Origin: an uncultured Verrucomicrobiae bacterium
Lineage (GTDB): Bacteria; Verrucomicrobiota; Verrucomicrobiia; Chthoniobacterales; UBA10450
DNA length: 64,000 bases
Direction: 5' to 3'
Assembly: GCA_963786135.1 (NCBI GenBank)
Contig: CAWAYF010000025.1
Coordinates: 20,572 to 84,571 of the forward strand
How positions within the stretch are numbered: the first letter of the stretch is position 1; each line of letters starts with the position of its first letter. Positions 17,816 through 34,491 of the stretch are shown here, one piece after another. The notes beneath the pieces are model-generated. The model was not told the origin of the DNA and searched no databases. It was given only the letters and a program-made list of their open reading frames with translations. The position numbers and the translations under genes were made by a program.

Positions 17816-19149
17816 CTAGGAAGACAGCGCAAATTTTCGGTCGATCAAGCGCTGCAGATGGTCCCCGATGGCCGGTTGATCGAGACGCTGAATGACTTCA
17901 TTCAAGAAGCCGGTGACGAGCAGACGCTGGGCGACTCTTGGCGGAATTCCGCGCGAGCGCAGATAAAACATTTCGTCTTCGTTGATCTGACCGGAGGTGG
18001 CGCCGTGGGTGCAACGGACGTTGTCGGCCAGAATTTCCAGACCGGGCATCGAGTTCGCTTCGGAATCGTCGCTCAAGAGAAGGTTGCGAACTTTTTGATA
18101 GGCATCGGTGAAATGCGCATGCGGTTCGACCCGGATCAGTCCGCCGAACGTGCAACGCGCCTTATCGTCGAGCGCATTCTTGTAAAGCAGATCGCTCGCG
18201 GTGCGCGGCGAAATGTGGTCCTGCAACGTGCGCGAATCGAATTCCTGATCGTTGGTCGCGACCGAAACCGCGAGCATGTCGCTGCGCGCGCCTTCACCGA
18301 CTAGCCGGCTCAGACCTTCGAATCGCGAGTAACGCGCTCCGAGATTCAAATTCAAACTCATCGCCGACGCGTCGTGATCGACAGTGGTCGAGTTCATTTG
18401 CAACGCGATCACTTTGCTGGCCCCATTCCTGCGCGCAAACATAAGTAACTTTCGCGCCCGGACCGGCGATCAGATCGTTCACGCCACAGGCGAAACCCGC
18501 GCGCTTGCTGATCACACGAGCGAAAATGTTCGATCACAGTCACTTTCGCCAGCTCGTCGGTAACGAGAAGCAAGTGCGGAAAGATCGACATGTTGTCGTG
18601 CGCGCAACCAGTGAAAGATCTCGATCGGCAGTTCGATCTCGACGCCACGCGGCACGAAAAGAAACGTTCCATTTGAAACCAGCGCCTCGATGCAGCGCGG
18701 CGAACTTCGCCGAACCGAGCGTTGCTTCGGTCGACATGAAATATTTTCGGAAAAGATCGGCGTGCTCGACCATCGCGCGCTCGAGCGGTTGAAAAATCAC
18801 GCCGCGCTTTTTCAGATCATCGGAGACGACGTTACGTTCGACCAGTTGATCGTTCGCGAAAATCATGCGACCGGCTACTTCGTCGAGACCGCTCGAGTAT
18901 TTCAGGATATTTTTGCGGTCGTCTTCCGAAAGTGGACCCGGAATTTCGAATGCGCGACAGATCGAGAAGATCGACATTGGAGAAACGCCAGGGCTGATCT
19001 TTGCGTATCGGACGCGGAATCGATTCGAATTTCTTCCAGGCCGCCAGCTGTTGTTCGCGAAACCAATCAGGCAAGTCACCGCGACTCAACCAGGCCCGAG
19101 AGGATCCCGAGAGGACTTTAGATTGCTTCTCCTGTGTAACTGACGGCAT
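17816..19149 (-). CDS. sufD: Fe-S cluster assembly protein SufD, three or more frame breaks
   Basis: The N-terminal piece is ORF 18832..19149 and the middle pieces are ORFs 18540..19079 and 18409..18672. The C-terminal piece, ORF 17816..18442, has the SufD-typical ...LSDDSEANSMPGLEILADNVRCTHGATSGQINEDEMFYLRSRGI. Confidence 0.8.
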
Positions 19150-19180
19150 GTCGATTTTTGCGGCAAACCGCCGCTCGGCG

Positions 19181-20594
19181 TTAACCGACCGAGCCTTCCA
19201 TCTCGAGCTCGATCAAACGCTTCAGTTCGACCGAATATTCCATCGGAAACTGGCGGACGAGATCGTTAACGAATCCGTTCACGCTCAAGCTCATCGCCTG
19301 CGCTTCGGTCAAACCGCGCTGCTGCATGTAGAAAATTTGTTCGGCGCTTACCTGGCGAGACGCTCGCTTCGTGCTGGACTGCGTTGCCGGTTCCGCGAAC
19401 GGTGATTGCCGGATAGGTGTCGGTCCGTGAAGTCGCGTTAATCAGGAGCGCGTCACATTCGGTGTTGTTTTTGCAATTCTTGAGATGCTTCGGCACGTGG
19501 ACGAGCCCGCGATAGGTCGCGCGGCCTGTGCCGATCGAGATCGACTTCGAGATGATGTTCGATGTCGTTTCGTCGGCGGCGTGAATCATTTTCGCGCCGG
19601 TGTCCTGGTGCTGGCCGTTGTTGGCCAGCGCGATCGAGAGCACTTCGCCGCGCGCTTTGCGGCCTTTCAGTACCACGCCCGGATATTTCATGGTCAGACG
19701 CGAGCCGATGTTGCAATCGATCCACTTGATCTCGGCGTCTTCGTGCGCGAGGCCGCGTTTGGTGACCAAGATTGAAAACGTTGGCCGACCAGTTCTGCAC
19801 GGTGATGTATTGGATCTTGGCGCCCTTGAGCGCGACCAGCTCGACCACCGCGCTGTGCAGCGTGGCGGTCTCGAACTTCGGCGCGGTGCAGCCTTCCATG
19901 TAAGTCACTTCGCTGCCTTCGTCGGCAATGATGAGCGTGCGTTCGAACTGGCCGAAATTTTCCGCGTTGATCCGGAAGTAAGCCTGCAGCGGATGTTTCA
20001 CCTTCACGCCGGGCGGCACGTAAATGAACGAGCCGCCGCTGAACACCGCCGCGTTGAGCGCGCTGAATTTGTTGTCGCCGATCGGGATGACCTTGCCGAA
20101 CCATTTCCGGAAAATTTCCGGATGATTTTTCAGTCCCTCGGTCGAACCGACGAAAATCACGCCCTGTTCGCCGACCGCTTTCTTGATGTTGGAATAGACC
20201 GCTTCGCTGTCGAACTGCGCTTCGACTCCGGCGAGAAATTTCCGTTCCTGCTCCGGAATGCCGAGCCGCTCGAATGTGCGCTTGATGTCTTCCGGCACTT
20301 CTTCCCAAGTGCGCTTCGGCTGCATCGCCGGACGCGAGGTAATAACGGATTTTGTCGAAATCGATCGCCTCGAGATCCTTGCTCGCCCAATGCGTCGGCA
20401 ATGGTTTCTCCAGAAAAGTTTTCAGACCGCGAAGACGGAATTCACGGACCCAATCCGGATCTTCTTTGACGTCGGAAATGTAGTGGATGGTTTTCTCGCT
20501 CAACCCGCGCCCGGCGTCCTTGGCGTAGGCGACGTCGTAATGAGAAATCGCCGATGCTGCGATCGATATTAACGGCTTTGGTTTCAGTTTTCAT
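19181..20594 (-). CDS. sufB: Fe-S cluster assembly protein SufB, three or more frame breaks
   Basis: Manual start MKTETKAVN... at 20594. The pieces are ORFs 19694..20503, 19453..20325 and 19266..19769, plus a terminal segment ...[45 protein letters not shown] ending at TAA 19181..19183. Confidence 0.85.
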
Positions 20595-22409: not shown

Positions 22410-22483
22410 TGCCCTGTGGTGTAATGGTAACACAGCGCCCTTTGGAGGCGTTATTCTTGGTTCGAGTCCAAGCGGGGCAGCCA
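22410..22483 (+). tRNA. tRNA-Gln (anticodon UUG)
   Basis: Hand-folded 74-nt cloverleaf: acceptor TGCCCTG/CGGGGCA (U1:A72, G73, encoded CCA), D arm GTGT-AATGGTA-ACAC, anticodon arm GCGCC-CTTTGGA-GGCGT, 4-nt variable loop, T arm CTTGG-TTCGAGT-CCAAG. Confidence 0.85.
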
Positions 22484-23016: not shown

Positions 23017-23979
23017 CTAAAACTTGACCGAGAATTCAAGGGCACCGCCAGCGTTGCCCACATTGTAGTCAAACTGGTCCTGGTTCGAATCGCTGTGGGC
23101 AAACGAGCTGATGGCACTAATCCAACACCAGTCGGTGACGCGATAGGTGGCCGTGGCTGAAATGATTTCACTGATCTCGTTGCGGCCGTTCTGGTGGTAA
23201 TCGCGCACCACGAAACGGCCGACTGCTCCAATGGAAAATGCCCGAGTAAGATCGACTGAATAGCCGATGTAGCTCTCATAATCGTTGCGGCGCGGCGATT
23301 GATGGTCCGCGGCCACGCTGAGGTAGGTGTCTGCACCCACGGTGACTTGCTGGGCGCGGCCAAACCGAAATGGCAGCTCCGCGTCGAGAAGGATCTGGTG
23401 ATTGGAAAAAAATTCGTCGCCCAACCGGTCGCCGTTGGTGAGCCGATTGAAATCGTACCAGGCCCGTAACATTACATTGTGAAACTGCGGGAGAAAATAA
23501 GTGAGACCCGCCTGGCAATCGAGGCTGGCGAAGTCGAACGAGGTGTATTTGCCGTAGTAAAAAACCTGTTCCTGTGCGCCGAGATGGGCATAAAGATTCT
23601 GAGCAATTCTCGGATCGTAAAAAGCGGACACCAGCGGGGCAATTATCACGTCGCTGACCTCGCCGCTGTTTGTGAGCGCAACGTTTGATGTGTAAAAAAT
23701 CGGCGTCGAGAACGACGCGGTGAACGGCTGGTACGTTTCGGTGCGCTTAAGAATTTGCTGCTCGCCTAAATCAGCATCGTTGGGACTGGGCACCACCTGA
23801 TCGCCAATCACTCCACTGTTAGGCGCCGTAGACTGAACCAGTGGTTGGTTTTGGGCTTGCACCAGCGCCACCTGATTTAGCTGAACAATCTGCGCTCGGG
23901 CAGGAAGCAGGGATGCGATTAGAAACACCACGGCTGCCCACCCTGCGGAACAGAAAATTCTTAGGCGGAGCTTTGTCAA
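23017..23979 (-). CDS. outer-membrane beta-barrel protein (porin-like), family unassigned
   Basis: Signal peptide (AAVVFLIASLLPARAQ), an alternating amphipathic pattern rich in Tyr/Gly/Asp, and the C-terminal beta-signal ...GGALEFSVKF ending in Phe. Its ATG overlaps the stop of the giant ORF (ATGA). Confidence 0.6.
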   Translation of the reverse strand: MTKLRLRIFCSAGWAAVVFLIASLLPARAQIVQLNQVALVQAQNQPLVQSTAPNSGVIGDQVVPSPNDADLGEQQILKRTETYQPFTASFSTPIFYTSNVALTNSGEVSDVIIAPLVSAFYDPRIAQNLYAHLGAQEQVFYYGKYTSFDFASLDCQAGLTYFLPQFHNVMLRAWYDFNRLTNGDRLGDEFFSNHQILLDAELPFRFGRAQQVTVGADTYLSVAADHQSPRRNDYESYIGYSVDLTRAFSIGAVGRFVVRDYHQNGRNEISEIISATATYRVTDWCWISAISSFAHSDSNQDQFDYNVGNAGGALEFSVKF

Positions 23980-26900
23980 TGTGTCCCTGGAGCTATCGGC
24001 ATGGTCGAGGAGAATCGCCGGGCTCCGCTAATCGGTACGTTTTTTCTACCGCCAGGCAGAATCACTTGCTCGGTCGCGTTAGCAGAGGTAGGAGTGCGAG
24101 AACGAGCTGCTTGGTTCGGAACGTTGATCTTTCCGCCTGGACCGGGATTGAAGCCATTGAGCAGCGAAAGCAGCTGCCCGGAATTGGTCACGTTAATCGC
24201 ACCGCCTTTTGCGTTAACCGACGAAGTGACGCCACCGCTCGATGAGGTTTGATTACTTACCCCTGTCGTGCTGCCGGAAGAGGATGGGCTAGGAGGAGTG
24301 GCCCCGAACGTTGGTGCATTTCCCAGAGGTTGCGGGGTGTTGGCGCCATTGCCAGCAAACGTTCCCGTGGTAGAACCGTTTCCGCCAAAGCCAGTGTAAT
24401 TGGCGTTGTTAGTGTAGATGTTGGCCGCGCCGCCGTTGCCCGCGATAGTAACCGTGACCCCGGAATTAATCGTGATCCTATTAGCCGCCAGGTCCATTTC
24501 CGTGCCGCTGCTCAGCGTGACGTTGGCAACAAACTTCAGGAGCCCGTTGCTTCCGGGCGCGTACAGTTTGAGAAGTGTATCGGCCGAAATCGTGTTGCTG
24601 CCGCTCCCACCGATGATCAAGCTGCCGTTGGCGCCGAAAACCCCAGCTTGCACGACGTTGGCATGAATATCCGTGTTGTTGAACGTGATCGTGCCGTTCC
24701 CATCGATTGTATTGAAAAACGTTCCACCGATCTCATACGTCCCGCCGTTGAAATTGATAGCCGCTGATCCGGTCGGATCGGGACCAAGAATCTGAACCGT
24801 GGCCTCATTGTTAACCGTTGCGGTACCCGAGACATTCATGTTGATGGTTTCGTTTCCGCCGACAGAACCACCGCTGCTGCTATCAATCACCACGAACAAA
24901 TGATCGGCGTTAAGATTTCCCGTCGTTCCGACTTGGACGGTCGCATTCCCACCAATCGTGCCCCCGATATTCTCGATAAAGGCTTCGAAAGTGCTCCCAG
25001 CCGTCAAGCTTGCGGCGCTGACATCCACTGACGCGTCGGATTCGATCGCTCCCGGGTTGTTGAAGAGTCCGAAAAATAACAAGCCTCCGGTGCTAACGTC
25101 GCCGGTCGCATTGAGGGTCAACGCCGCCTTTCCTCCAATGGAACCGCCGTTGGAATTAACGATTTGAGCGACAAAATCCTGCGCGGCAGAGATGTTTGCC
25201 GTCTGAATGTTCACCGTGGCGTCAGAACCTATGACTCCTGCATTTGTGCCGCCCGCGTCGTTAAAAATTTCGAAATGCCCGTTCCCGGCTGCGTTATTAG
25301 CCCCTGTGCCCGGTTGTATGGTAAGGTTTCCAGACAGCGTAAAGTTAATTGCAGCGCTACCTTGAATCGTCCCACCGTTTTCGTTATCGATAATTGCGTT
25401 GAGGTTACCGGCAGTAGAAAAGTTAGTCGCGCTTACATTGATTGCCGCGTTGGAACCGATGAAGCCTCCATCATAATTGTCGATTTCGAAACGCGCATTC
25501 CCGACGTCGTTAACGTCTCCCGTAATATTAAATGTGATACCGCCTCCGGAACCAATGGTGCCCCCGGTGTCATTCTCAATGAGTCCCTCAAGGACGTGGC
25601 CGCACGACAAACTGCCGTCTACGCTTACGGAAATATTTCCTCCCGTTGTAATAGTGCCACCCTCATTGAAAATCCCAGTCGCAAAGGAGCCGAAATCTTC
25701 GGTGCCATTCGTTTGCACATTGTTGTCAAACGTCAGGTTGATATTGCCGCCGGTTCCTATCGTTCCGCCAGTTTCGCCTCCTGCGATGTTGCCATTATCC
25801 AGGAAAAAGTTGAGGCTGTGAAAATTTCCTGAAGTTTCCGTAACGTCGCCACCGAAACTCCCGCTAATATTTCCGCCAGTAGTGATCATGCCTCCATTGG
25901 CGTTGGCGATTTGCTCGGAAAACGTTCCGTTCAGCATGGTTGTCCCGGTAACATCCAACGTTACGTTGCCGCCGCTGTTGATCATGCCGCCAGTGGAATT
26001 GTCGACGAAAAGCGACAAGCTCGTGTTGGACGCGCCACTGATCGAGCTTGCCAAATTCAGGTTACCCGTCACCGTCACCGAACTATTTGCACCGGTTGTA
26101 ACTGTTCCACGGTTGGTCACCTGAAATAACGATGCCCCAGTTGTCGAACTGTCCGTGTAGTCGCCGCTGACATTTAATGTGACGCTAGCGCCATTTGCGA
26201 CCGTTACCCCCTGAGCCACAGCTGTAGTGAAGTTCAGCGGTCCATTTAAAGAGAATGCTCCGCTGATTTGCGCATTGAGATCGCCACCTTGAGTCGCCGC
26301 GTCAAATTCGTTCACGCTTAGCGAGCCGGCATAATCGAATTGAATCGATCCCGGCGCTGACAGCGAGATCGTGTTTGCACTTATCGTCACCGGATTGTTC
26401 AGCCCGATGTTCACGTCGCCCGCGCCGGTGATGGTCAGTAGATCGCAAGACAAAAACGCGCCATCGATCGTTATCGTTGGCGTCGAACCCGCGGGATCGT
26501 TTTGGTCCATCGTAATGGTACCGCGATCCGCCTCGATCGTTCCGTTAACAACAATGTCGGCACCCATGGTCGACAGGGTGATCGAACCGCCCGGTCCCGG
26601 CGCGTTCGCGTTGAGCAATGAAAGCAATTGCCCGTTTGCACCGACCGTGATTCCGGTGCCAGTGGTGAGATCACTTTGCAAATCAATCGTCCCGCCGCTG
26701 GCGCTTTGCCGTGGGGCCTCAGAATCATCGGACGAGACCTGGATAGTATCGTTTACGGTCACCATGCCTGCGGTCGATAGCAACGTGACCGAGCCGCCCG
26801 CGCCGCTGTAGATTCCGGGAGCGCTATTCAATCCTGTTGTCGCGGTAATGTCGGTACCGTTATTGGCCGTGATGTCACCAGTCGTGTTGACAATAAAGAC

Positions 26901-28364
26901 CCCGCCATCGCCGCCGTTGGCCGGGCCGCCCCCGCTGAAACTTCCAGCGTCAGCGCCGTTGAAGTTGGTGTTTCCGATTCCGGTCTCCGAATCGAAAGTA
27001 ATGGTGGTGGCGTTAATGGTCAGCTTGCCGCCCGAGGAGAGACCATCAATTCCGTCGAATTGGTTCCCGCTGTAATCGATCCCTGCCGGTGAGACGATGG
27101 AATTGACGTTAAAGGTCTCCTGCACGGCCGCGCCGCCGGGGCTTTCAACGAAAGCTCGGATTCCATTCGAGCCGACGGTTAGAACCCCGTTCGGCGCATC
27201 GATTGTTACAACATCGACACCGTTTGCCGTGATATTGCCGCCGGCGGTAACTGTCCCGAACGCCCCGAGCTGGCCGGCCACATCAATTGTCGTTCCAGCC
27301 GTCATGTTGCTTACGAGAGCGTTACCTCCAATGGAAATGAAAGTGCCCGCCGTCAGCGTACTGATTCTAACGTCGCTCGCGGCGGTAAAGGAACCGTCGC
27401 CTGTCACCGTGTTGCTCAGCGTATTATTAAGAACGTCGAGGCCGTGGACACTGATGTCGCCGACCGAAGTCAGCGTCAGATCGCCGGCAACGAAATCGAT
27501 GGTCGGCGCCTGAAATCCGCCGCTTCCGGCAGTGAACAAAACCGTGGCGGTGCCGAGATCGAACGTGGTTGGGTTGATGCTGCTCGTGATATTAATGGTG
27601 GTGCCCTGCGCCGTAAGGGACGTCCCAGTGAAGGTACTTGTGCCGCCATCGTCCGGATTGAGCGTGGCGTTCAGCGTGCCACCGGCGATAAAGGTAAGGT
27701 CGCCTGTCGGATTCGGAAATTGACGGGCATCGATATTCAGGTTGGAAAGCGATTCAATATCGATGGTTTGCGCGGTGATCATTCCCGTTCCTGCGAGAAA
27801 ATCGCCGCCGGAAAACGATCTGAATTCCGTCGTGGCGGTTATGTCCCCGTTGATCTGGACCGTGCCCTCAGAATCCAGATGCACCACATCGGCGCCTGAA
27901 ATCGGACTTGCCAGCGTCAGGTTGGAACCAGTGCCGCGCGCGTAAAAAGTGAGATGTGAAATACCGGAAAATGCGATATCGGGACCGAGAGTGATCGAGC
28001 CGCTTTGCGTTGCGATAAAAAGTCGATCGAGCCCAGCGAAGGTTAAGATCGTCCCGGCGGGCGCAGCTGAAGTAACATCCCCAACGCTAACCAAACCGAG
28101 GAAGGTTGTGGCGCCGCTCGGGATGGTAATGGTTGGGTCCCCGGTCAGCTCCAGACTTGAAAACTTGAATACCGCTACCGGGACCCCGTTCCCGTTCGTG
28201 TTGAAGAATTCCCCTATGGTCGTGTCGAACGAGCTCGTCGAACCAAAGAGGTAATCAAATTCAGACCCGTCCAACGCCGGGCCTCGGTAAATCTTGCCGA
28301 AATCAGTTGCGCCATTGGTCGTGATCAATGGATCGGTATTGATCTGCGTCCCGCTGGTTATCAC
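23976..28364 (-). CDS. giant Gly/Thr/Asn-rich repeat protein (predicted beta-helix/adhesin-like), no signal peptide at the annotated start
   Basis: Intact 1462-aa ORF (GTG start) with no Cys-rich or catalytic motifs. It has about a dozen degenerate units of roughly 40 aa (..DN.xGGxIxSGGNIxL..) and the motif GQLLSLLNxxxPGPGG twice. The frame stays open upstream into the 3' end of the FecR-like gene. Confidence 0.7.
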   Translation of the reverse strand: MITSGTQINTDPLITTNGATDFGKIYRGPALDGSEFDYLFGSTSSFDTTIGEFFNTNGNGVPVAVFKFSSLELTGDPTITIPSGATTFLGLVSVGDVTSAAPAGTILTFAGLDRLFIATQSGSITLGPDIAFSGISHLTFYARGTGSNLTLASPISGADVVHLDSEGTVQINGDITATTEFRSFSGGDFLAGTGMITAQTIDIESLSNLNIDARQFPNPTGDLTFIAGGTLNATLNPDDGGTSTFTGTSLTAQGTTINITSSINPTTFDLGTATVLFTAGSGGFQAPTIDFVAGDLTLTSVGDISVHGLDVLNNTLSNTVTGDGSFTAASDVRISTLTAGTFISIGGNALVSNMTAGTTIDVAGQLGAFGTVTAGGNITANGVDVVTIDAPNGVLTVGSNGIRAFVESPGGAAVQETFNVNSIVSPAGIDYSGNQFDGIDGLSSGGKLTINATTITFDSETGIGNTNFNGADAGSFSGGGPANGGDGGVFIVNTTGDITANNGTDITATTGLNSAPGIYSGAGGSVTLLSTAGMVTVNDTIQVSSDDSEAPRQSASGGTIDLQSDLTTGTGITVGANGQLLSLLNANAPGPGGSITLSTMGADIVVNGTIEADRGTITMDQNDPAGSTPTITIDGAFLSCDLLTITGAGDVNIGLNNPVTISANTISLSAPGSIQFDYAGSLSVNEFDAATQGGDLNAQISGAFSLNGPLNFTTAVAQGVTVANGASVTLNVSGDYTDSSTTGASLFQVTNRGTVTTGANSSVTVTGNLNLASSISGASNTSLSLFVDNSTGGMINSGGNVTLDVTGTTMLNGTFSEQIANANGGMITTGGNISGSFGGDVTETSGNFHSLNFFLDNGNIAGGETGGTIGTGGNINLTFDNNVQTNGTEDFGSFATGIFNEGGTITTGGNISVSVDGSLSCGHVLEGLIENDTGGTIGSGGGITFNITGDVNDVGNARFEIDNYDGGFIGSNAAINVSATNFSTAGNLNAIIDNENGGTIQGSAAINFTLSGNLTIQPGTGANNAAGNGHFEIFNDAGGTNAGVIGSDATVNIQTANISAAQDFVAQIVNSNGGSIGGKAALTLNATGDVSTGGLLFFGLFNNPGAIESDASVDVSAASLTAGSTFEAFIENIGGTIGGNATVQVGTTGNLNADHLFVVIDSSSGGSVGGNETINMNVSGTATVNNEATVQILGPDPTGSAAINFNGGTYEIGGTFFNTIDGNGTITFNNTDIHANVVQAGVFGANGSLIIGGSGSNTISADTLLKLYAPGSNGLLKFVANVTLSSGTEMDLAANRITINSGVTVTIAGNGGAANIYTNNANYTGFGGNGSTTGTFAGNGANTPQPLGNAPTFGATPPSPSSSGSTTGVSNQTSSSGGVTSSVNAKGGAINVTNSGQLLSLLNGFNPGPGGKINVPNQAARSRTPTSANATEQVILPGGRKNVPISGARRFSSTMPIAPGTH

Positions 28365-28404
28365 GTATGGATTGGGCGACGTTATCGTGGGCAGTGGCCC
28401 AAAC

Positions 28405-29235
28405 TTACTTGGCGGGGCGGTCGGTGACGGCGATGCCGACGGTCCGGGCGTGGGCGGTGGTTATGTTAGGATTTGAAGTCGTGTTTACGGAGATTACATC
28501 GACCAGGTCTTTTAATGGTGGCTGAGTTGTTCCAGGGTTTAATTGCGCCGTCTGCTGCTCATCGATCACCTGCAAAATCAGCGGTAGATTGGCCAGATCA
28601 GGAAAGCCAACGATCAACTGCGATGTCTCGATCACGGTTTTGACATTAAATGTTCCCTTCACCAAGTGACCGTTGGCGTCGAGGGTTACCATTTCTCCGC
28701 CGTGCAAAGTAACTGCCTTTTCCGGATGACCGATCGGATAAAAAGTGCCGACGCCTTCCAGGACCATGAACTTTGCCGGCGGCCCGGTTCCAAACATGGC
28801 GGTACCGCCACTGACAGCTGCTGTAGTCACACTGGAGATGATCTTAGCGGAAGCAGCTCCAGGCGGGACCTCCAGAAGGACAGTTCCGTGCTCCACACGA
28901 AGCTGGCGAGTTCCCTCGTTAAGACTGAAAACCGTGTTTTCGCCAAGACGCGTAATCGTCAGGTCGCCAAATGTCAGCTCTGCTCTTGATTGTCCCCCGG
29001 TTCGTACGGCCATTCCCAGCCTGACTTCATCGTTTAACGAAGCAGGACTCGCTGCCGCGTTTGACCGCAACAAACTTACGTCGCGAAAAACTTGAGAAAC
29101 TCGTGCGCTTTGCAGCGGTGACGCCCCGTCTGCCGCTGATAATGCGAACACGCATGCGGAAAGTGCCGAATAGCGGATCAATAACCGCCGCTTCAAAGCA
29201 TACCTGTGCCCACGAGTCGTGTCTGCGGTTTTCAA
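28405..29235 (-). CDS. FecR-domain protein with signal peptide/anchor
   Basis: LLIRYSALSACVFALSAADGA, then a FecR-like core: ARVSQVFRDVSLL...VRTGGQSRAELTFGDLTITRLGENTVFSLNEGTRQLRVEHGTVLLEV...AAVSGGTAMF. Confidence 0.7.
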   Translation of the reverse strand: MKTADTTRGHRYALKRRLLIRYSALSACVFALSAADGASPLQSARVSQVFRDVSLLRSNAAASPASLNDEVRLGMAVRTGGQSRAELTFGDLTITRLGENTVFSLNEGTRQLRVEHGTVLLEVPPGAASAKIISSVTTAAVSGGTAMFGTGPPAKFMVLEGVGTFYPIGHPEKAVTLHGGEMVTLDANGHLVKGTFNVKTVIETSQLIVGFPDLANLPLILQVIDEQQTAQLNPGTTQPPLKDLVDVISVNTTSNPNITTAHARTVGIAVTDRPAK

Positions 29236-29597
29236 GGTCGAACCTCCTCCGAAGGCCGAAGTATGGCTGAACCAGACTTGGGCGTCTTACCATTTGCGGG
29301 ATCAACAATCGAAACTGACGAGCCGCTTCCCGAAATTACGAGGTTGGTTTCGATCAACTTGCTGTTCGATTTCTCTTCTTGCTGGCTTTGGATTATTTCA
29401 TTTCCTATCCTGACCGGATCGCCAACTAAAGCAGCCCGGCGCCCGGCGTCGTTGGTCACCAGATCCGCTTCTTTGACGATGGCTGTAACTCGTACCTCTT
29501 GAGAAGTGGCGCTTGCGATTGAAAACGGAAAGATGGGCGGAGCAAGAAGTAACCCCGTCAGCGCGAAACATCTGCGAATTCTGGGACGTGTACCCAC
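29232..29597 (-). CDS. small secreted FecR-N-terminal-like protein
   Basis: 121 aa with a signal peptide (CFALTGLLLAPPIFPFSIASA), then VRVTAIVKEADLVTNDAGRRAALVGDPV, similar to the FecR-like starts of the two other genes. ATGA overlap with the next gene. Confidence 0.5.
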   Translation of the reverse strand: MGTRPRIRRCFALTGLLLAPPIFPFSIASATSQEVRVTAIVKEADLVTNDAGRRAALVGDPVRIGNEIIQSQQEEKSNSKLIETNLVISGSGSSVSIVDPANGKTPKSGSAILRPSEEVRP

Positions 29598-30058
29598 AAA
29601 AAGGGACGCCTTTTTTGGGGTTTAGATATTGATAAGTCAAGCTTAAGCCTGGTGGCGTGACACCGGAGATGCAGACTAAGTTTTTTTGCTGTGTGCCACT
29701 GATTACCTAGGCAAGATCAAAAGCGTATTCGTCCGCTTACCGGGGGTCAAAGATTCGCGCGAATGATCGACAATAGCGGCTGGCATAGCTGCTGCAATCT
29801 TGTGATCGGGGTTGACTTTGAGTTGTGTTCCGAAACGCGGCGCAGAATCAAAACACGCACCGGCCTCAATGTTAGGCACAGCTGGCCTAAAGACGATGCC
29901 ATCCTTATGGCAGCTGATTTTACGCGATTAACAAATCTGCAATACGTAAGTGACTGGACCTGAGGGCCGATGGCCCTTGCCGTCTCCGCCGTTAATTGGT
30001 GTTGGCACGAATGCTGGTAATAGCGGACTCGAAGTGAGTGCACCGAAAAACAAAAAAT

Positions 30059-30234
30059 ATGCGACGAGCGGGAATCCAAAACATTCCAGCTCCAAACGCA
30101 AAAAGGAAAGATTGATCCGCCTCGATGATCTGATCCCAAAACAGAACGTCACCGGCGGTCGTCAATTTTTGTTCGGCGTCACTGACGCAGTACAAAACAC
30201 AAAAACAATAAACAACCCAAAACAAGAAAACTGA
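30059..30234 (+). CDS. candidate small peptide 1 with ...DDLIPKQNVTGG leader-like segment; needs one A-run repair or a TTG start
   Basis: The frame of ORF 29950..30234 encodes ...KRKKERLIRLDDLIPKQNVTGG-RQFLFGVTDAVQNTKTINNPKQEN. The only ATG (30059) is in the +1 frame, and it would join if the A5 run at 30100..30104 were A6. Confidence 0.35.
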
Positions 30235-30235
30235 T

Positions 30236-30424
30236 ATGTCGAAGAAAACCAAGAAAAACATCAAAGTTCGTGACCTCAACCCAAAGAAAGACGCTAAAGG
30301 CGGCGGCGTGGCTGTCTCCGGCGGCGGTGCTGCCGTCTCCGGCCATCCCTCCCTAAGCGGCAAAGGCCCGGCCCCACTGGGCGGAGGAGCGTCGGTGAGT
30401 GGCAAAGGTCCAAGCACCAATTGA
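30236..30424 (+). CDS. candidate small peptide 2: Lys-rich KGG leader plus Gly/Ser/Ala-rich core
   Basis: MSKKTKKNIKVRDLNPKKDAKGG-GVAVSGGGAAVSGHPSLSGKGPAPLGGGASVSGKGPSTN, followed by an 8-bp GC hairpin (30435..30442 / 30458..30465). Confidence 0.5.
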   Translation: MSKKTKKNIKVRDLNPKKDAKGGGVAVSGGGAAVSGHPSLSGKGPAPLGGGASVSGKGPSTN

Positions 30425-30507
30425 TGTATGACAGCCGCGCCGGAGGTTCTATTCCGCGGCGCGGTCCCACGTAGGAAAAATTAAACCCAACTAGAAACCC
30501 AACCCCA

Positions 30508-30664
30508 ATGAAAAAAGCCAATAAGAAAATCAACGTTCGTGATATGAAGCCGAGGAAAAATCCCAAAGCTGGCGGCATCGGAAAGCCCGCTCCGCAAGGC
30601 ATCGGCAAACCCGCCCCGCAAGGCATCGGCCACCCCGCCGCAAGGCACGCCGAATGTGAACTAA
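30508..30664 (+). CDS. candidate small peptide 3: Lys-rich KAGG leader plus (GIGKPAPQ)x3 core; frame broken in the third repeat unit
   Basis: MKKANKKINVRDMKPRKNPKAGG-IGKPAPQGIGKPAPQGIGHPA.. The third 24-nt unit reads GCCG where unit 2 has GCCCCG. When repaired, the ORF ends ...PQGTPNVN at TAA 30662..30664, just before a terminator. The unrepaired track ORF runs to 30825. Confidence 0.5.
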
Positions 30665-30682
30665 GATTTACTCGGCAGTCGC

Positions 30683-30719
30683 GCCGCGCCCCGGTTAATT
30701 CCGCGGCGCGGCTTTTTTT
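30683..30719 (+). terminator. intrinsic terminator after peptide 3
   Basis: GCCGCGCC (30683..30690) pairs with GGCGCGGC (30705..30712) and is followed by T7 (30713..30719). Confidence 0.7.
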
Positions 30720-30747
30720 GTACTTTCGGTATCCGAAGCTGGCGCCG

Positions 30748-30915
30748 TTATGGGAACAGACCCCGGATTTTCTTTGCCCGCATTACGCGCTCGACGCCGA
30801 TAGCCATCGCGGCGGTGCGATGTGAAATCTTGTGCGCCTTGGCGCGCTTGATCACCTGGGTGAAGGAGTGCTCCAGGATTCGGAACAACTCCTTGTTGGG
30901 CTCGAACAATCCCAT
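30748..30915 (-). pseudogene. orphan 3' fragment of a Glu/Leu/Phe/Val dehydrogenase-family gene
   Basis: Manual translation gives MGLFEPNKELFRILEHSFTQVIKRAKAHKISHRTAAMAIGVERVMRAKKIRGLFP*. This matches the conserved C-terminal helix region of small GDHs (..F..V....K.I..R.AA...A..RV..A...RG). An in-frame stop lies about 45 nt upstream, and no N-terminal part is present. Confidence 0.55.
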
Positions 30916-31237
30916 GCGCACGCGCGAGGATAGTCGTTCACGGTTGTTTTCTACGGTTGGTCAATTTTTTGGAGCAAAACTGCGCAAAATCCCGACACGT
31001 GGTGCAAACCACTCCGATGATCGACACCTCTGAAAAACAGGCTATGCAAATGCGCGAAAAACTGCGCAAAAACTCGTTAGGCAATTACAAATCAGGTGCT
31101 CTATCAGGCTTAGACAAGGCCCTAGGGCAAGCTCGGCGGGGACAAAGCATAGGACAGGCGTTTTACAGCGATGGAGCAGGTTCCCTGGGTGGATACGGGG
31201 GTCAATTCTTAAATTCACCGCCCGAACAACGCCTCGG

Positions 31238-31277
31238 GGAGGCGTTATTCTTGGTTCGAGTCCAAGCGGGGCAGCCA
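31238..31277 (+). repeat. partial tRNA-Gln copy (3' 40 nt), putative attR
   Basis: GGAGGCGTTATTCTTGGTTCGAGTCCAAGCGGGGCAGCCA is identical to 22444..22483. Weaker similarity extends about 12 nt further 5'. No acceptor 5' strand or D arm lies upstream. Confidence 0.8.
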
Positions 31278-31443
31278 ATTATCTGCTCGGCGCGGGACTC
31301 GGCAGCGGAAACGCAAATGTTGCCGACGGTGAAGCGGTCGAGGGGACGCTCGCCGATGGCGATGCTGCCGATGGACTCGGCGACGCCGTGGGCGTCGGAG
31401 TCGGCGGCGGCGGAATAATATTTTCCCAGTGATGCAGGGGCAC

Positions 31444-31588
31444 GGTCGCGCCGCCGATTTCCTCAACTAATTTCTGACAGCGTTCCTGGAGCTTGTCTAA
31501 ATTTGGCGGCCAACGGGAGGCGGTCGCGCCGCCGATTTCCTCAACAGTTTCTGACAGCGTTCCTGGAGCTTGTCTAAATTTGGCGGCC
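31444..31588. repeat. 78-bp tandem duplication at the 3' end of the GH75-like gene
   Basis: GGTCGCGCCGCCGATTTCCTCAAC..TTTCTGACAGCGTTCCTGGAGCTTGTCTAAATTTGGCGGCC occurs at 31444.. and 31522... The copies differ by one substitution and one 1-nt indel (CTAAT versus CAGT). Confidence 0.8.
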
Positions 31589-32703
31589 CAAACGGCGTGT
31601 CAGCCGTTCCGGGAAAAATCAAATACGTCACTTTCAATTCGCTGACCGGTCGACTGTAAGGCGTGGATTGGGGATTGATTTCTTTTGCGATCCGAAACGA
31701 GGCTTCGCCAACTTTATCGTTCGGTCCGATGTCTCCAACAATCGCCGGATAAATTCCATCACCGAAAACGACAAGCGCGTAGTCGCCAGTCTTCGCTCCA
31801 TCCCGGTCGTGCGCGAACGCGCCCGGAATCACGATGTAGGGATCGGTCGTGCCGATGAGGAAGCTGTATTTCTGGAGCGTAGTCACTTCGGCCCGCAATT
31901 GCGTGATCGCGTTTCGTAAATCGCGTTTGCGATCCGGCGGAGTTGTCTTTGCATTGAATTCGTCTTCGGCCTTTTTCAACCGGTCTTCGGTGGCGGCGAG
32001 ATACGGATTTGGCGCCGGCGTTTTCTTCGACCAACGATAACTGGTGAACGGCTTGAAGTTCGTCGGCGCACCGGTCCCGACCGGCATCCGGTCGCTATCC
32101 GAACCATCACAATCGACATCCATGTCGGCTTGAAGCAGGAGCGCTTTGCGATGGGTTTGGGGGTGCTGCAATTGCAGGATTGTCTGACAATCGAAGAAGT
32201 TGTGACGTGAGAGCAGCAGATCCAGCCGGCTAAGATTCTCGCGCAGCATTCTGAGCTTCGTGTCGTAGAGCTGAGCGAATAACGGCGAGACCGGCTCGGC
32301 CGGGAGCATCGTTGAGAGCCCGGGCAATAGCTCCGGCAGTTTGGGATTCACCTTCGCCAGTTCTTCGATGGTTCGATTCGGCGTCGGCACGCGCGCCTTC
32401 AATTTTAACTCAATTACGTAACTTTCGGGATCGACGCGCTCAGTGGTTGCATCTGCTCCTGGAGTCGGCTCAACAGTCGAATGCAAAGTGATGCCGCTGA
32501 ATAATCGGCCGGTATCAAGTTTACCGGCAATCACCGGCGGTCGCGTGGGCGACGGCTCCGGAGTCGGGGTCGGCGAAGTTTCTCGCGGCGGCGAAGTATT
32601 GCAAACGCTCCTGCGAAATCCAGCGATACAGAATCAAAGCGAAAATTATCGCCGCCAGGAGAACGACCAGTCTTCGCAACGTCCGCAAACTCAGGTTTGC
32701 CAC
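31497..32703 (-). CDS. membrane-anchored glycoside hydrolase family 75 (chitosanase-like) domain protein; frame break near the 5' end and possibly near the 3' end
   Basis: ORF 31497..32534 contains ADMDVDCDGSD, PYIVIPG and GDYALVVFGDGIYPAIVGDIGPNDKVGEASFRIA, which match GH75 signatures. ORF 32521..32703 supplies a TM anchor (RLVVLLAAIIFALILY). With a 1-nt repair in the duplicated block, the frame runs on to TAA 31279..31281. Confidence 0.65.

Positions 32704-33162: not shown

Positions 33163-34491
<1,329 letters not shown>

Follow-up and report, generated by a model that had tools for sequence, protein, structure and literature searches.

The 64,000-nucleotide stretch analysed here (contig CAWAYF010000025.1, positions 20,572 to 84,571, from an uncultured Verrucomicrobiae bacterium of the Chthoniobacterales; the window, below, means this whole stretch) carries on its plus strand three co-oriented small open reading frames (ORFs), pep1, pep2 and pep3, which have in common a Lys-rich leader of the form ...DL-x-P-K-K-x-x-K-G-G (Table 1). 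When all six frames of the window are scanned by regular expression for the strict motif D[LMIV]xP[KR][KQR]x2-4[KT]A?GG, three places are found, which are pep1, pep2 and pep3 only. An earlier interpretation made without database searches (the sequence-only reading) had pointed out the three ORFs with their common motif, their repeats and two hairpins, all of which are present in the window, and had seen in the conserved leader ending in Gly-Gly (GG), followed by a hypervariable core, the layout of exported or processed peptides. The comparisons reported below lend support to this layout.

A family of small genes with conserved leaders and variable cores

With pep2 as query we found 37 close homologues of 44-90 aa, in which the leader MSKSKKKNIKVRDLNPKKDAKGG is near-invariant while the cores are wholly different. 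On the whole, homologous small ORFs occur elsewhere in hundreds of clusters: among 1.84 billion representative proteins, a search by profile retrieves at least 420 pep2-type clusters (50% identity, E<=1e-3), nearly all of 40-70 aa among the matches listed, and pep1 forms a separate conserved family of 115 homologous clusters with L..LDDLIP....GG....FG invariant. Among 48 pep2-type genes collected from genomes, the residues D-11, P-8, D-5, K-3, G-2 and G-1 are invariant and encoded by 2-4 synonymous codons each, with a mean pairwise identity of 82% for the leader block against 26% for the cores. Invariant residues with varied synonymous codons show that it is the protein, rather than an RNA element, that is under selection. 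Double-glycine leaders are roughly 15-30 residues long and have GG (or Gly-Ala/Ser) just before the mature part; here GG stands before the mature part in all 48 pep2-type genes, in pep1 across 51 sequences, and in all three window ORFs. Judged from these comparisons, pep1-pep3 are real coding genes rather than chance ORFs and belong to a large family in soil Verrucomicrobia. The family was rightly called unassigned: pep1, pep2 and pep3 have no match in Pfam or NCBIfam at E<=10, in neither database did we find a model for the family, and no describing paper was found, either by a full-text literature search for the leader motif strings or in the literature on Udaeobacter/Chthoniobacterales together with bacteriocins or ribosomally synthesized peptides with post-translational modifications (RiPPs), where nothing relevant appeared. 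A 2025 microcin survey does not mention Verrucomicrobia.

The pep1 product reads VSAPKNKKYATSGNPKHSSSKRKKERLIRLDDLIPKQNVTGG, then RQFLFGVTDAVQNTKTINNPKQEN, and is organised as a basic N-terminal part, the segment LIRLDDLIPKQNVTGG and RQFLFGVTDAVQNTKTINNPKQEN as a conserved tail. It is atypical in leader length, with about 42 residues before GG, and the leaders of pep2 and pep3 have 23 residues each. AlphaFold2 predicts a mostly disordered pep1 with low confidence (mean predicted local distance difference test score 63, predicted template modelling score 0.25). The sequence-only reading had held that pep1 needs either a repair in an A-run or a TTG start. Neither is needed, as the frame opened by the GTG at 30034 is intact and conserved, and the ATG at 30059 that had been considered is out of frame. 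From the conserved GTG to an internal Leu/Met codon there are 66, 75, 78 or 81 nt, stop-free, in 52 of 55 loci, and this multiple-of-three, stop-free spacing shows the 66-codon form to be coding. The internal TTG was also tried as a general start of pep1 and rejected, for the 22-27 codons upstream of it keep frame in the same 52 loci; the codon at its position is ATG in seven loci and elsewhere also CTG, CTA, ATT or GTG. Between the window and a related locus (L001; such labels denote the loci and contigs compared), the differences in the 3' two-thirds of pep1 fall mostly on third codon positions. The ATG of pep2 lies 1 nt past the pep1 stop codon, as TGA-T-ATG in the window and TAA-T-ATG in L001, an arrangement which suggests translational coupling of the two genes. 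The leaders of pep2 and pep3 are 73% identical over 67 nt, and their cores contain tandem repeats of 21 nt (2.1 copies, pep2) and 24 nt (3.2 copies, pep3, 30574-30647), corresponding to units of 7 and 8 residues.

In the family as a whole, the cores are 20-40 residues long and consist largely of G (17%), S (13%), T (10%), A (10%), Q (8%) and N (7%), with only 0.2% Cys; they are polar and cationic (net charge about +2), without hydrophobic segments or a fixed residue pattern. Compared with composition-preserving shuffles, 74 of 161 cores are significantly periodic, and the commonest periods, 5 (32 cores) and 10 (17 cores), together account for 49 of these 74. Triplets of the form Phi-[STQ]-G are fourfold enriched. 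The units vary by genome (HQMQG, GQHT, PVQHG, NTVGR, SSMTG, GNLSG and others), while close relatives differ by whole units, as seen for pep3 in the window and in L008 (one unit fewer) and for peptides P0030 and P0031, so that replication slippage fits as the source of the differences. Pentapeptide-repeat proteins (PF00805), which are built of tandem A(D/N)LXX units, are alike in periodicity only, and no Pfam match to them was obtained. Many cores are His-rich (GHQAS, GALHQ, GQHT, PVQHG) and others Met-rich (SSMTG, SPMQG), for example in P0158, P0159, P0160, P0172, P0186 and P0204 and in the loci L019, L044 and L055; His and Met are typical of metal-binding motifs.

Table 1. Features of the peptide cassette and its surroundings, in window positions
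Feature	Position	Strand	Description
Homology block to complete loci	29831-30890	+	From just past the activator stop codon to the glutamate dehydrogenase 3' end; blastn
Inverted repeats AGGCACAGCTGGCCT and TGCCATCCTTATGGCA	29874-29912	+	29874-29888 and 29897-29912, then a T-rich tail
Inverted repeat TTACG-N20-CGTAA	29920-29949	+	Block conserved in closer relatives, GATTTTACGCGATT..CAAATCTGC....GTAAGT (alignment)
Sigma-54-type promoter TGGCAC-GAATG-CTGGT	30003-30018	+	-24 GG canonical; -12 TGG instead of TGC
pep1	30034-30234	+	66 codons, GTG start; 82% aa identity to L001, full length
pep2	30236-30424	+	62 aa; leader MSKKTKKNIKVRDLNPKKDAKGG and repetitive core rich in Gly/Ser/Ala/Pro
GC-rich hairpin after pep2	30434-30465	+	No U-tract; -22.5 kcal/mol, z = -2.2
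pep3	30508-30664	+	Leader MKKANKKINVRDMKPRKNPKAGG and three IGKPAPQG units; 52 aa once repaired
Intrinsic terminator	30683-30719	+	GCCGCGCC...GGCGCGGC + T7; -25.7 kcal/mol
Glutamate dehydrogenase fragment	30751-30903	-	Last 51 codons; tblastn 90-92% to residues 370-420 of the L001/L005 enzyme

Complete loci in related genomes

To study the context of the peptides, one genome was scanned for each GTDB species, which gave 62 loci, and the counts of context below rest on these. All of them come from metagenome-assembled genomes (MAGs) of Verrucomicrobiota, namely Chthoniobacterales, Candidatus Udaeobacter and 'Spartobacteria'. Complete loci have a fixed order: a SurA/PpiC-like protein of about 365 aa, an ATP-binding cassette (ABC) exporter, HlyD, a sigma-54 activator, then pep1, pep2 and pep3, and a convergent glutamate dehydrogenase (GDH) gene. 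Overall, the ABC exporter, HlyD, the activator, pep1 and pep2 stand in identical order and spacing in 42 of the 62 loci, and in five more, where contig ends intervene, HlyD and the activator are visible. Thus 42-47 of the 62 related genome loci have the small ORFs clustered with a regulator, HlyD and a C39-ABC transporter, the kind of association that the sequence-only reading had proposed looking for. Six loci are orphans, having pep1, pep2 and their own promoter with the exporter absent within up to 10 kb; one (L059) is atypical in arrangement, and eight are more distant or truncated. In complete loci pep2 is usually followed by further pep2-like genes and then a terminator, and between the activator and GDH no further conserved ORF besides the peptides was found. 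Two complete cassettes of promoter, pep1 and pep2 stand in tandem in L047 (8860, 9877) and in L050 (6569, 7711). In L065 and L061, 3-5 ORFs bear the leader, and the same short core (PISWPGRN) recurs in several of them.

The exporter (1038 aa) consists of two N-terminal cNMP_binding (cyclic-nucleotide-binding) domains, Peptidase_C39, ABC_membrane and ABC_tran. It matches HlyB, PCAT1 and ComA over full length, and its C39 catalytic set is complete, with the Gln and Cys of the QxxxxDCG motif (QQIDEMDCG) as well as the His and Asp. The activator (337 aa) has Sigma54_activat, an AAA lid and HTH_8, the sensor domain being absent as in PspF. The first protein of the operon, of about 365 aa, is acidic and soluble. 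Genes of the adenylate/guanylate cyclase-tetratricopeptide repeat (TPR) type were considered as partners of the cNMP-binding domains and rejected, being near only about eight loci and in variable positions. Class III cyclase-TPR genes lie at L001 606-2993, L029 7232-9607, L036 4312-6750, L062 4180-6603 and L023 11053-13422, and in three loci such a gene is directly upstream of an exporter-less cassette, which is suggestive given the cNMP-binding domains, though the pattern is inconsistent.

Sigma-54 promoters have a GG at -24 and a GC at -12, 10 nt apart, and work with an enhancer-binding protein. The element ahead of pep1 in the window has two mismatches to TGGCAC-N5-TTGCW and is not significant alone. 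However, TGGCA[CT]-N5/6-[CG]TG[GAT]T is recognisable in nearly all of about 55 pep1-bearing loci, 29-32 nt upstream of the GTG, and the activator gene is directly upstream of the pep1 cassette in complete loci; it is this conservation, the fixed position and the adjacent activator gene which give the promoter call its weight. No sigma-70-like promoter was found in 29200-31300. We therefore predict that the pep1 promoter depends on sigma-54, as judged from the sequences compared. Placing the GG at -25/-24 puts the predicted start of transcription near 30029, about 5 nt ahead of the GTG, and the mRNA would be almost leaderless. No clear Shine-Dalgarno sequence precedes pep2 or pep3 in the window, and the absence of such sequences is likely explained by the pep1 GTG being about 5 nt from the predicted start and the pep2 ATG being 1 nt past the preceding stop. 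Further upstream, the inverted repeat at 29920-29949, within a block conserved in closer relatives, is a candidate binding site (upstream activating sequence) for the activator. The exact inverted repeats upstream were also considered as a family-wide operator, and this was rejected as their conservation is limited to close relatives.

Taking these results together, we consider it quite probable that pep1-pep3 form the substrate cassette for a secretion system which is specific to Chthoniobacterales/Udaeobacter and centred on a peptidase-containing ABC transporter (PCAT). In such a system the activator would drive the promoter at 30003-30018, the transcript would begin about 5 nt before the pep1 GTG, and pep2 would be translated through its coupling to pep1. 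The C39 domain would then recognise the leader [IV]KV[RQ]DLxPKKDAKGG and cut after Gly-Gly, and the core of 20-40 residues would leave through the ABC/HlyD machinery. Cleavage after GG and export are strong inferences from sequence. In contrast to the variable peptides, pep1 has a conserved tail and probably acts either as a constant partner or as a regulatory peptide.

The window copy and its flanks

The block homologous to complete loci ends sharply on both sides in the window, so that the window cassette is an orphan, either displaced or duplicated. Against L008 (9595-10641) the identity is 93.4% over 1065 nt, indels included, while the flanks are unrelated: in L008 the block is bordered on the left by the end of the activator gene and on the right by the remainder of GDH. 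The GDH fragment of the window matches the C-terminal end of Pfam ELFV_dehydrog. In accordance with the sequence-only reading, which had noted the lack of a C39 transporter in the window, neither exporter, C39 domain, HlyD, activator nor the protein of about 365 aa is found in the 64 kb, and the local copy may be inert for this reason. An exact look-up of the window pep2 retrieves an identical protein on one independent contig of Logan, the 1.3-kb L070, whose left flank is of the parent type as in L008. Since this contig is the sole match, the window's own junctions lack independent confirmation. Orphan cassettes recur, however, and in MAGs having a full locus as well as an orphan the part in common is the cassette of 450-600 nt alone, with 89-97% identity. 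The simplest reading is therefore that of satellite copies served in trans by the exporter, with a decaying relic as the main alternative, and the window copy could work only with an exporter and an activator supplied from another part of the genome.

As assembled, pep3 is frameshifted by a 2-nt gap in the C-run at 30638-30639 and runs on to 30825 (105 aa). The 2-nt repair proposed earlier agrees with an independent assembly, as L070, which is Illumina-derived and about 97% identical, reads CCCC where the window reads CC, and its pep3 is intact with 52 aa, ending at the same AAC-TAA (window TAA 30662-30664). Elsewhere in the window, SufB/D-like and ornithine/arginine-decarboxylase genes (17816-20325; 33163-34195) are broken into overlapping ORFs, which means either a frameshift-rich assembly with long-read-like indel errors or many pseudogenes. 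In L008, at about 9970 (aligned to window 30196-30199), the pep1 A-run has one extra A, GTACAAAAACAC against GTACAAAACAC in the window, which breaks the L008 frame; a homopolymer error in this MAG is the probable source of the extra base. In view of the other split genes and this homopolymer difference, a sequencing error is no less likely than a true mutation in pep3.

The two hairpins, which the sequence-only reading had described as near-identical, indeed have an exact 14-nt arm, ATTCCGCGGCGCGG, in common; a T7 run follows only the second. The terminator after pep3 is conserved in L001, L002, L005, L008 and L070; the pep2 hairpin occurs in the window, L008 and L070, and L001 and L005 lack it. 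This hairpin is a lineage-specific copy of the terminator stem and may halt transcription in part or stabilise the RNA. The cassette duplication proposed from these hairpins holds for pep2 and pep3 as an old paralogy, whereas the hairpin copy is recent, specific to the lineage of the window, L008 and L070, and not general. The inverted repeats at 29874-29912 are kept with compensatory changes in L001, L005 and L008, not across the wider family, and in the parent locus they probably serve the upstream exporter/activator operon as its terminator(s).

On the left of the cassette, the minus strand at 23017-29235 encodes a FecR-domain protein (276 aa), a 1462-aa protein without Pfam match and a 320-aa protein with a weak match to the beta-barrel porin BBP2_2; the FecR gene occupies 28405-29235, so the divergent orientation noted earlier is correct. 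L005 and L031 have homologues of this operon immediately upstream of their exporter operon, where the relative orientation is the opposite of that in the window. A functional link was considered and rejected, as the operon adjoins the system in only three of about 60 loci (the window, L005 and L031) and its orientation in the window differs. Farther left is tRNA-Gln(ttg) (22410-22483), whose 3' 40 nt are repeated exactly at 31238-31277, 8.8 kb downstream; the peptide cassette lies between the two copies, along with the 320-aa/giant/FecR operon and the GDH fragment. Such an arrangement resembles the attachment-site (att) duplication of a tRNA-integrated island, though no integrase was seen. Past the GDH fragment, a segment of about 150 nt (30937-31113) has 71-75% matches to L009 (15-166) and L027 (6965-7052 and 7710-7824), in the latter directly after the peptide cassette, and may be a small repeated element. 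At 31443-31500 and 31521-31577 there is a near-tandem 58-nt direct repeat of 96.5% identity.

The relic alternative, in which the window copy decays after a rearrangement or island insertion and is now neither expressed nor exported, has in its favour the abrupt ends of homology at 29831 and about 30890 with only the last 51 GDH codons left, the pep3 frameshift, the absence of exporter and activator, and the position of the block between tRNA-Gln and the repeat of its 3' end. We consider it unlikely nevertheless, because pep1 and pep2 are intact, as are the promoter and the terminator, all with about 97% identity to L070/L008, promoter-bearing orphans occur in at least six other genome loci, some in MAGs also having a full locus, and the 2-nt C-run gap may be a sequencing error in an assembly that splits other genes as well.

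Assessment and relation to known systems

Several points weigh against the substrate cassette of a PCAT system. The canonical double-glycine consensus LSxxELxxIxGG has hydrophobic residues at -4, -7, -12 and -15. The leaders of the 48 pep2-type genes have them at -4, -10, -13 and -15, with Lys at -7, Arg/Gln at -12 and the invariant Pro at -8, so that they deviate from it, as the sequence-only reading had already observed. The -12 promoter element reads TG[G/A/T], the usual C missing; neither an outer-membrane factor nor an immunity gene is conserved in the loci; and the window copy has a frameshifted pep3 and none of the machinery within 64 kb. In addition, all relatives are MAGs or metagenome contigs, and statements that parts belong to the same genome hinge on binning.

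It is improbable, in our view, that the peptides are instead RiPP precursors, as the sequence-only reading had allowed, with the leader recruiting a modifying enzyme and the modified repeat units being released by cleavage. Conserved leaders with hypervariable cores are indeed similar in layout, and the first protein of the operon matches TIGR04500 ('PpiC-related putative peptide maturation system protein') in 24 of 24 orthologues (best E 1.3e-12); the invariant Pro at -8 might, speculatively, be a target of a parvulin-like protein. But the TIGR04500 scores are far under the curated cut-off (28.7 against 180 bits), and in the PDB a single sequence finds nothing and a profile only a weak match to the parvulin domain of the chaperone SurA (E 0.07), the sole structural relative. 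Besides, no recognised modification enzyme (radical SAM, LanM, YcaO etc.) is found in the window or the conserved operon, which in complete loci offers only this SurA/PpiC-like protein, and the cores are nearly Cys-free without a fixed residue pattern. A reading of the conserved 5' parts as an RNA element or as chance ORFs, rather than as translated leaders, is very improbable, for although long stretches of the pep1 region are near-invariant at the nucleotide level in close relatives and clear Shine-Dalgarno sequences are missing before pep2 and pep3, the synonymous codons vary, the pep1 indels are stop-free multiples of three in 52 of 55 loci, an Rfam scan of 28800-32000 gives no match at E<=1, and gene callers of several pipelines call the ORFs independently.

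The PCAT-centred system preferred here appears as a variant of known double-glycine peptide systems. Class II microcins are small peptides of Gram-negative bacteria with a Gly-Gly-cut leader and often Gly/Ser-rich cores, exported by C39-ABC and HlyD-type (CvaAB-type) machinery. The layout of an N-terminal GG leader with a C39-ABC and an HlyD-type adaptor would be the same, whereas the leader consensus is another one, no immunity gene is at the locus, and the cores are polar tandem repeats without Cys or hydrophobic segments. In streptococci, the PCATs ComAB and BlpAB couple leader cleavage to export of ComC and BlpC, whose cores diverge among strains into 'pherotypes'. Strain-divergent cores are found here too, and the exporter aligns full-length with ComA; unlike the streptococcal systems, the setting is Gram-negative and needs HlyD, no sensor kinase is adjacent, and the regulator is a sensor-less sigma-54 activator.

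The closest relatives are the cyanobacterial 'group I'/HetC-type clusters. Group I clusters combine SurA, a long-type CAP_ED-C39-ABC transporter and HlyD; few precursors were found for them (0.35 per cluster), and a KIxDL...GG motif was noted in HetP-like neighbours (Wang et al. 2011, PMC3140520). HetC of Nostoc is a PCAT with a cyclic nucleotide monophosphate (cNMP) domain, which binds guanosine tetraphosphate (ppGpp) and whose substrate is unknown (PMC10986499). The complete loci, not the window, have in common with these systems a cNMP-binding extension N-terminal to a catalytic C39 domain, HlyD and a SurA/rotamase-like protein, the SurA match being the weak one given above. The KIxDL...GG motif resembles K[VI]xDL...GG of the Verrucomicrobiota leaders, a likeness taken from the paper's description and regarded as a lead. 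The Verrucomicrobiota loci differ from group I/HetC in having two cNMP-binding domains, in their sigma-54 activator with a -24/-12-type promoter, and in substrates that are obvious and numerous. In Synechococcus elongatus, EbfG1-4 form a co-transcribed array of small GG-motif proteins secreted by the C39 transporter PteB, which is said to have HetC's domain organisation, and they enable biofilm formation and are not antibiotics (PMC4997328). The co-transcribed array is alike by description while its regulation differs, and the example shows that GG-motif peptides of such transporters need not be antibiotics.

As for function, the exported cores are most likely strain-specific extracellular effectors, either microcin-like agents of competition or recognition or matrix-forming peptides, and this is the weakest step of the argument. 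Their variability between strains fits competition or recognition peptides, judged on sequence, while constraint on composition only, together with periodicity, would also fit self-assembling or matrix peptides by analogy with EbfG. A bolder proposal, which we put forward tentatively and hold to be rather doubtful as a whole, is that Chthoniobacterales, the very abundant soil genus Udaeobacter among them, secrete the conserved pep1 and strain-specific repeat peptides changing by slippage through a sigma-54-switched system. These peptides would be the first natural substrates clearly known for HetC-type, cyclic-nucleotide-gated PCATs, and would serve kin recognition, competition or extracellular self-assembly; in the last case the 5-residue repeats could stack as rungs of a beta-solenoid. 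If true, this would be a secreted-peptide diversification system of a sort so far undescribed.

The lineage of the hosts includes Candidatus Udaeobacter, which ranks with the most abundant soil bacteria and with those hardest to cultivate, and hundreds of peptides with unrelated repeat cores give a concrete handle on the interactions of these organisms. The leader motif can be used for finding small genes which annotation at present overlooks or calls 'hypothetical'. PCATs of the long, cNMP-binding type are widespread and their substrates mostly unknown, that of HetC being an open question (PMC10986499). With exporter, substrates, regulator and promoter all readable at one locus, leader recognition by this class of transporters becomes directly testable.

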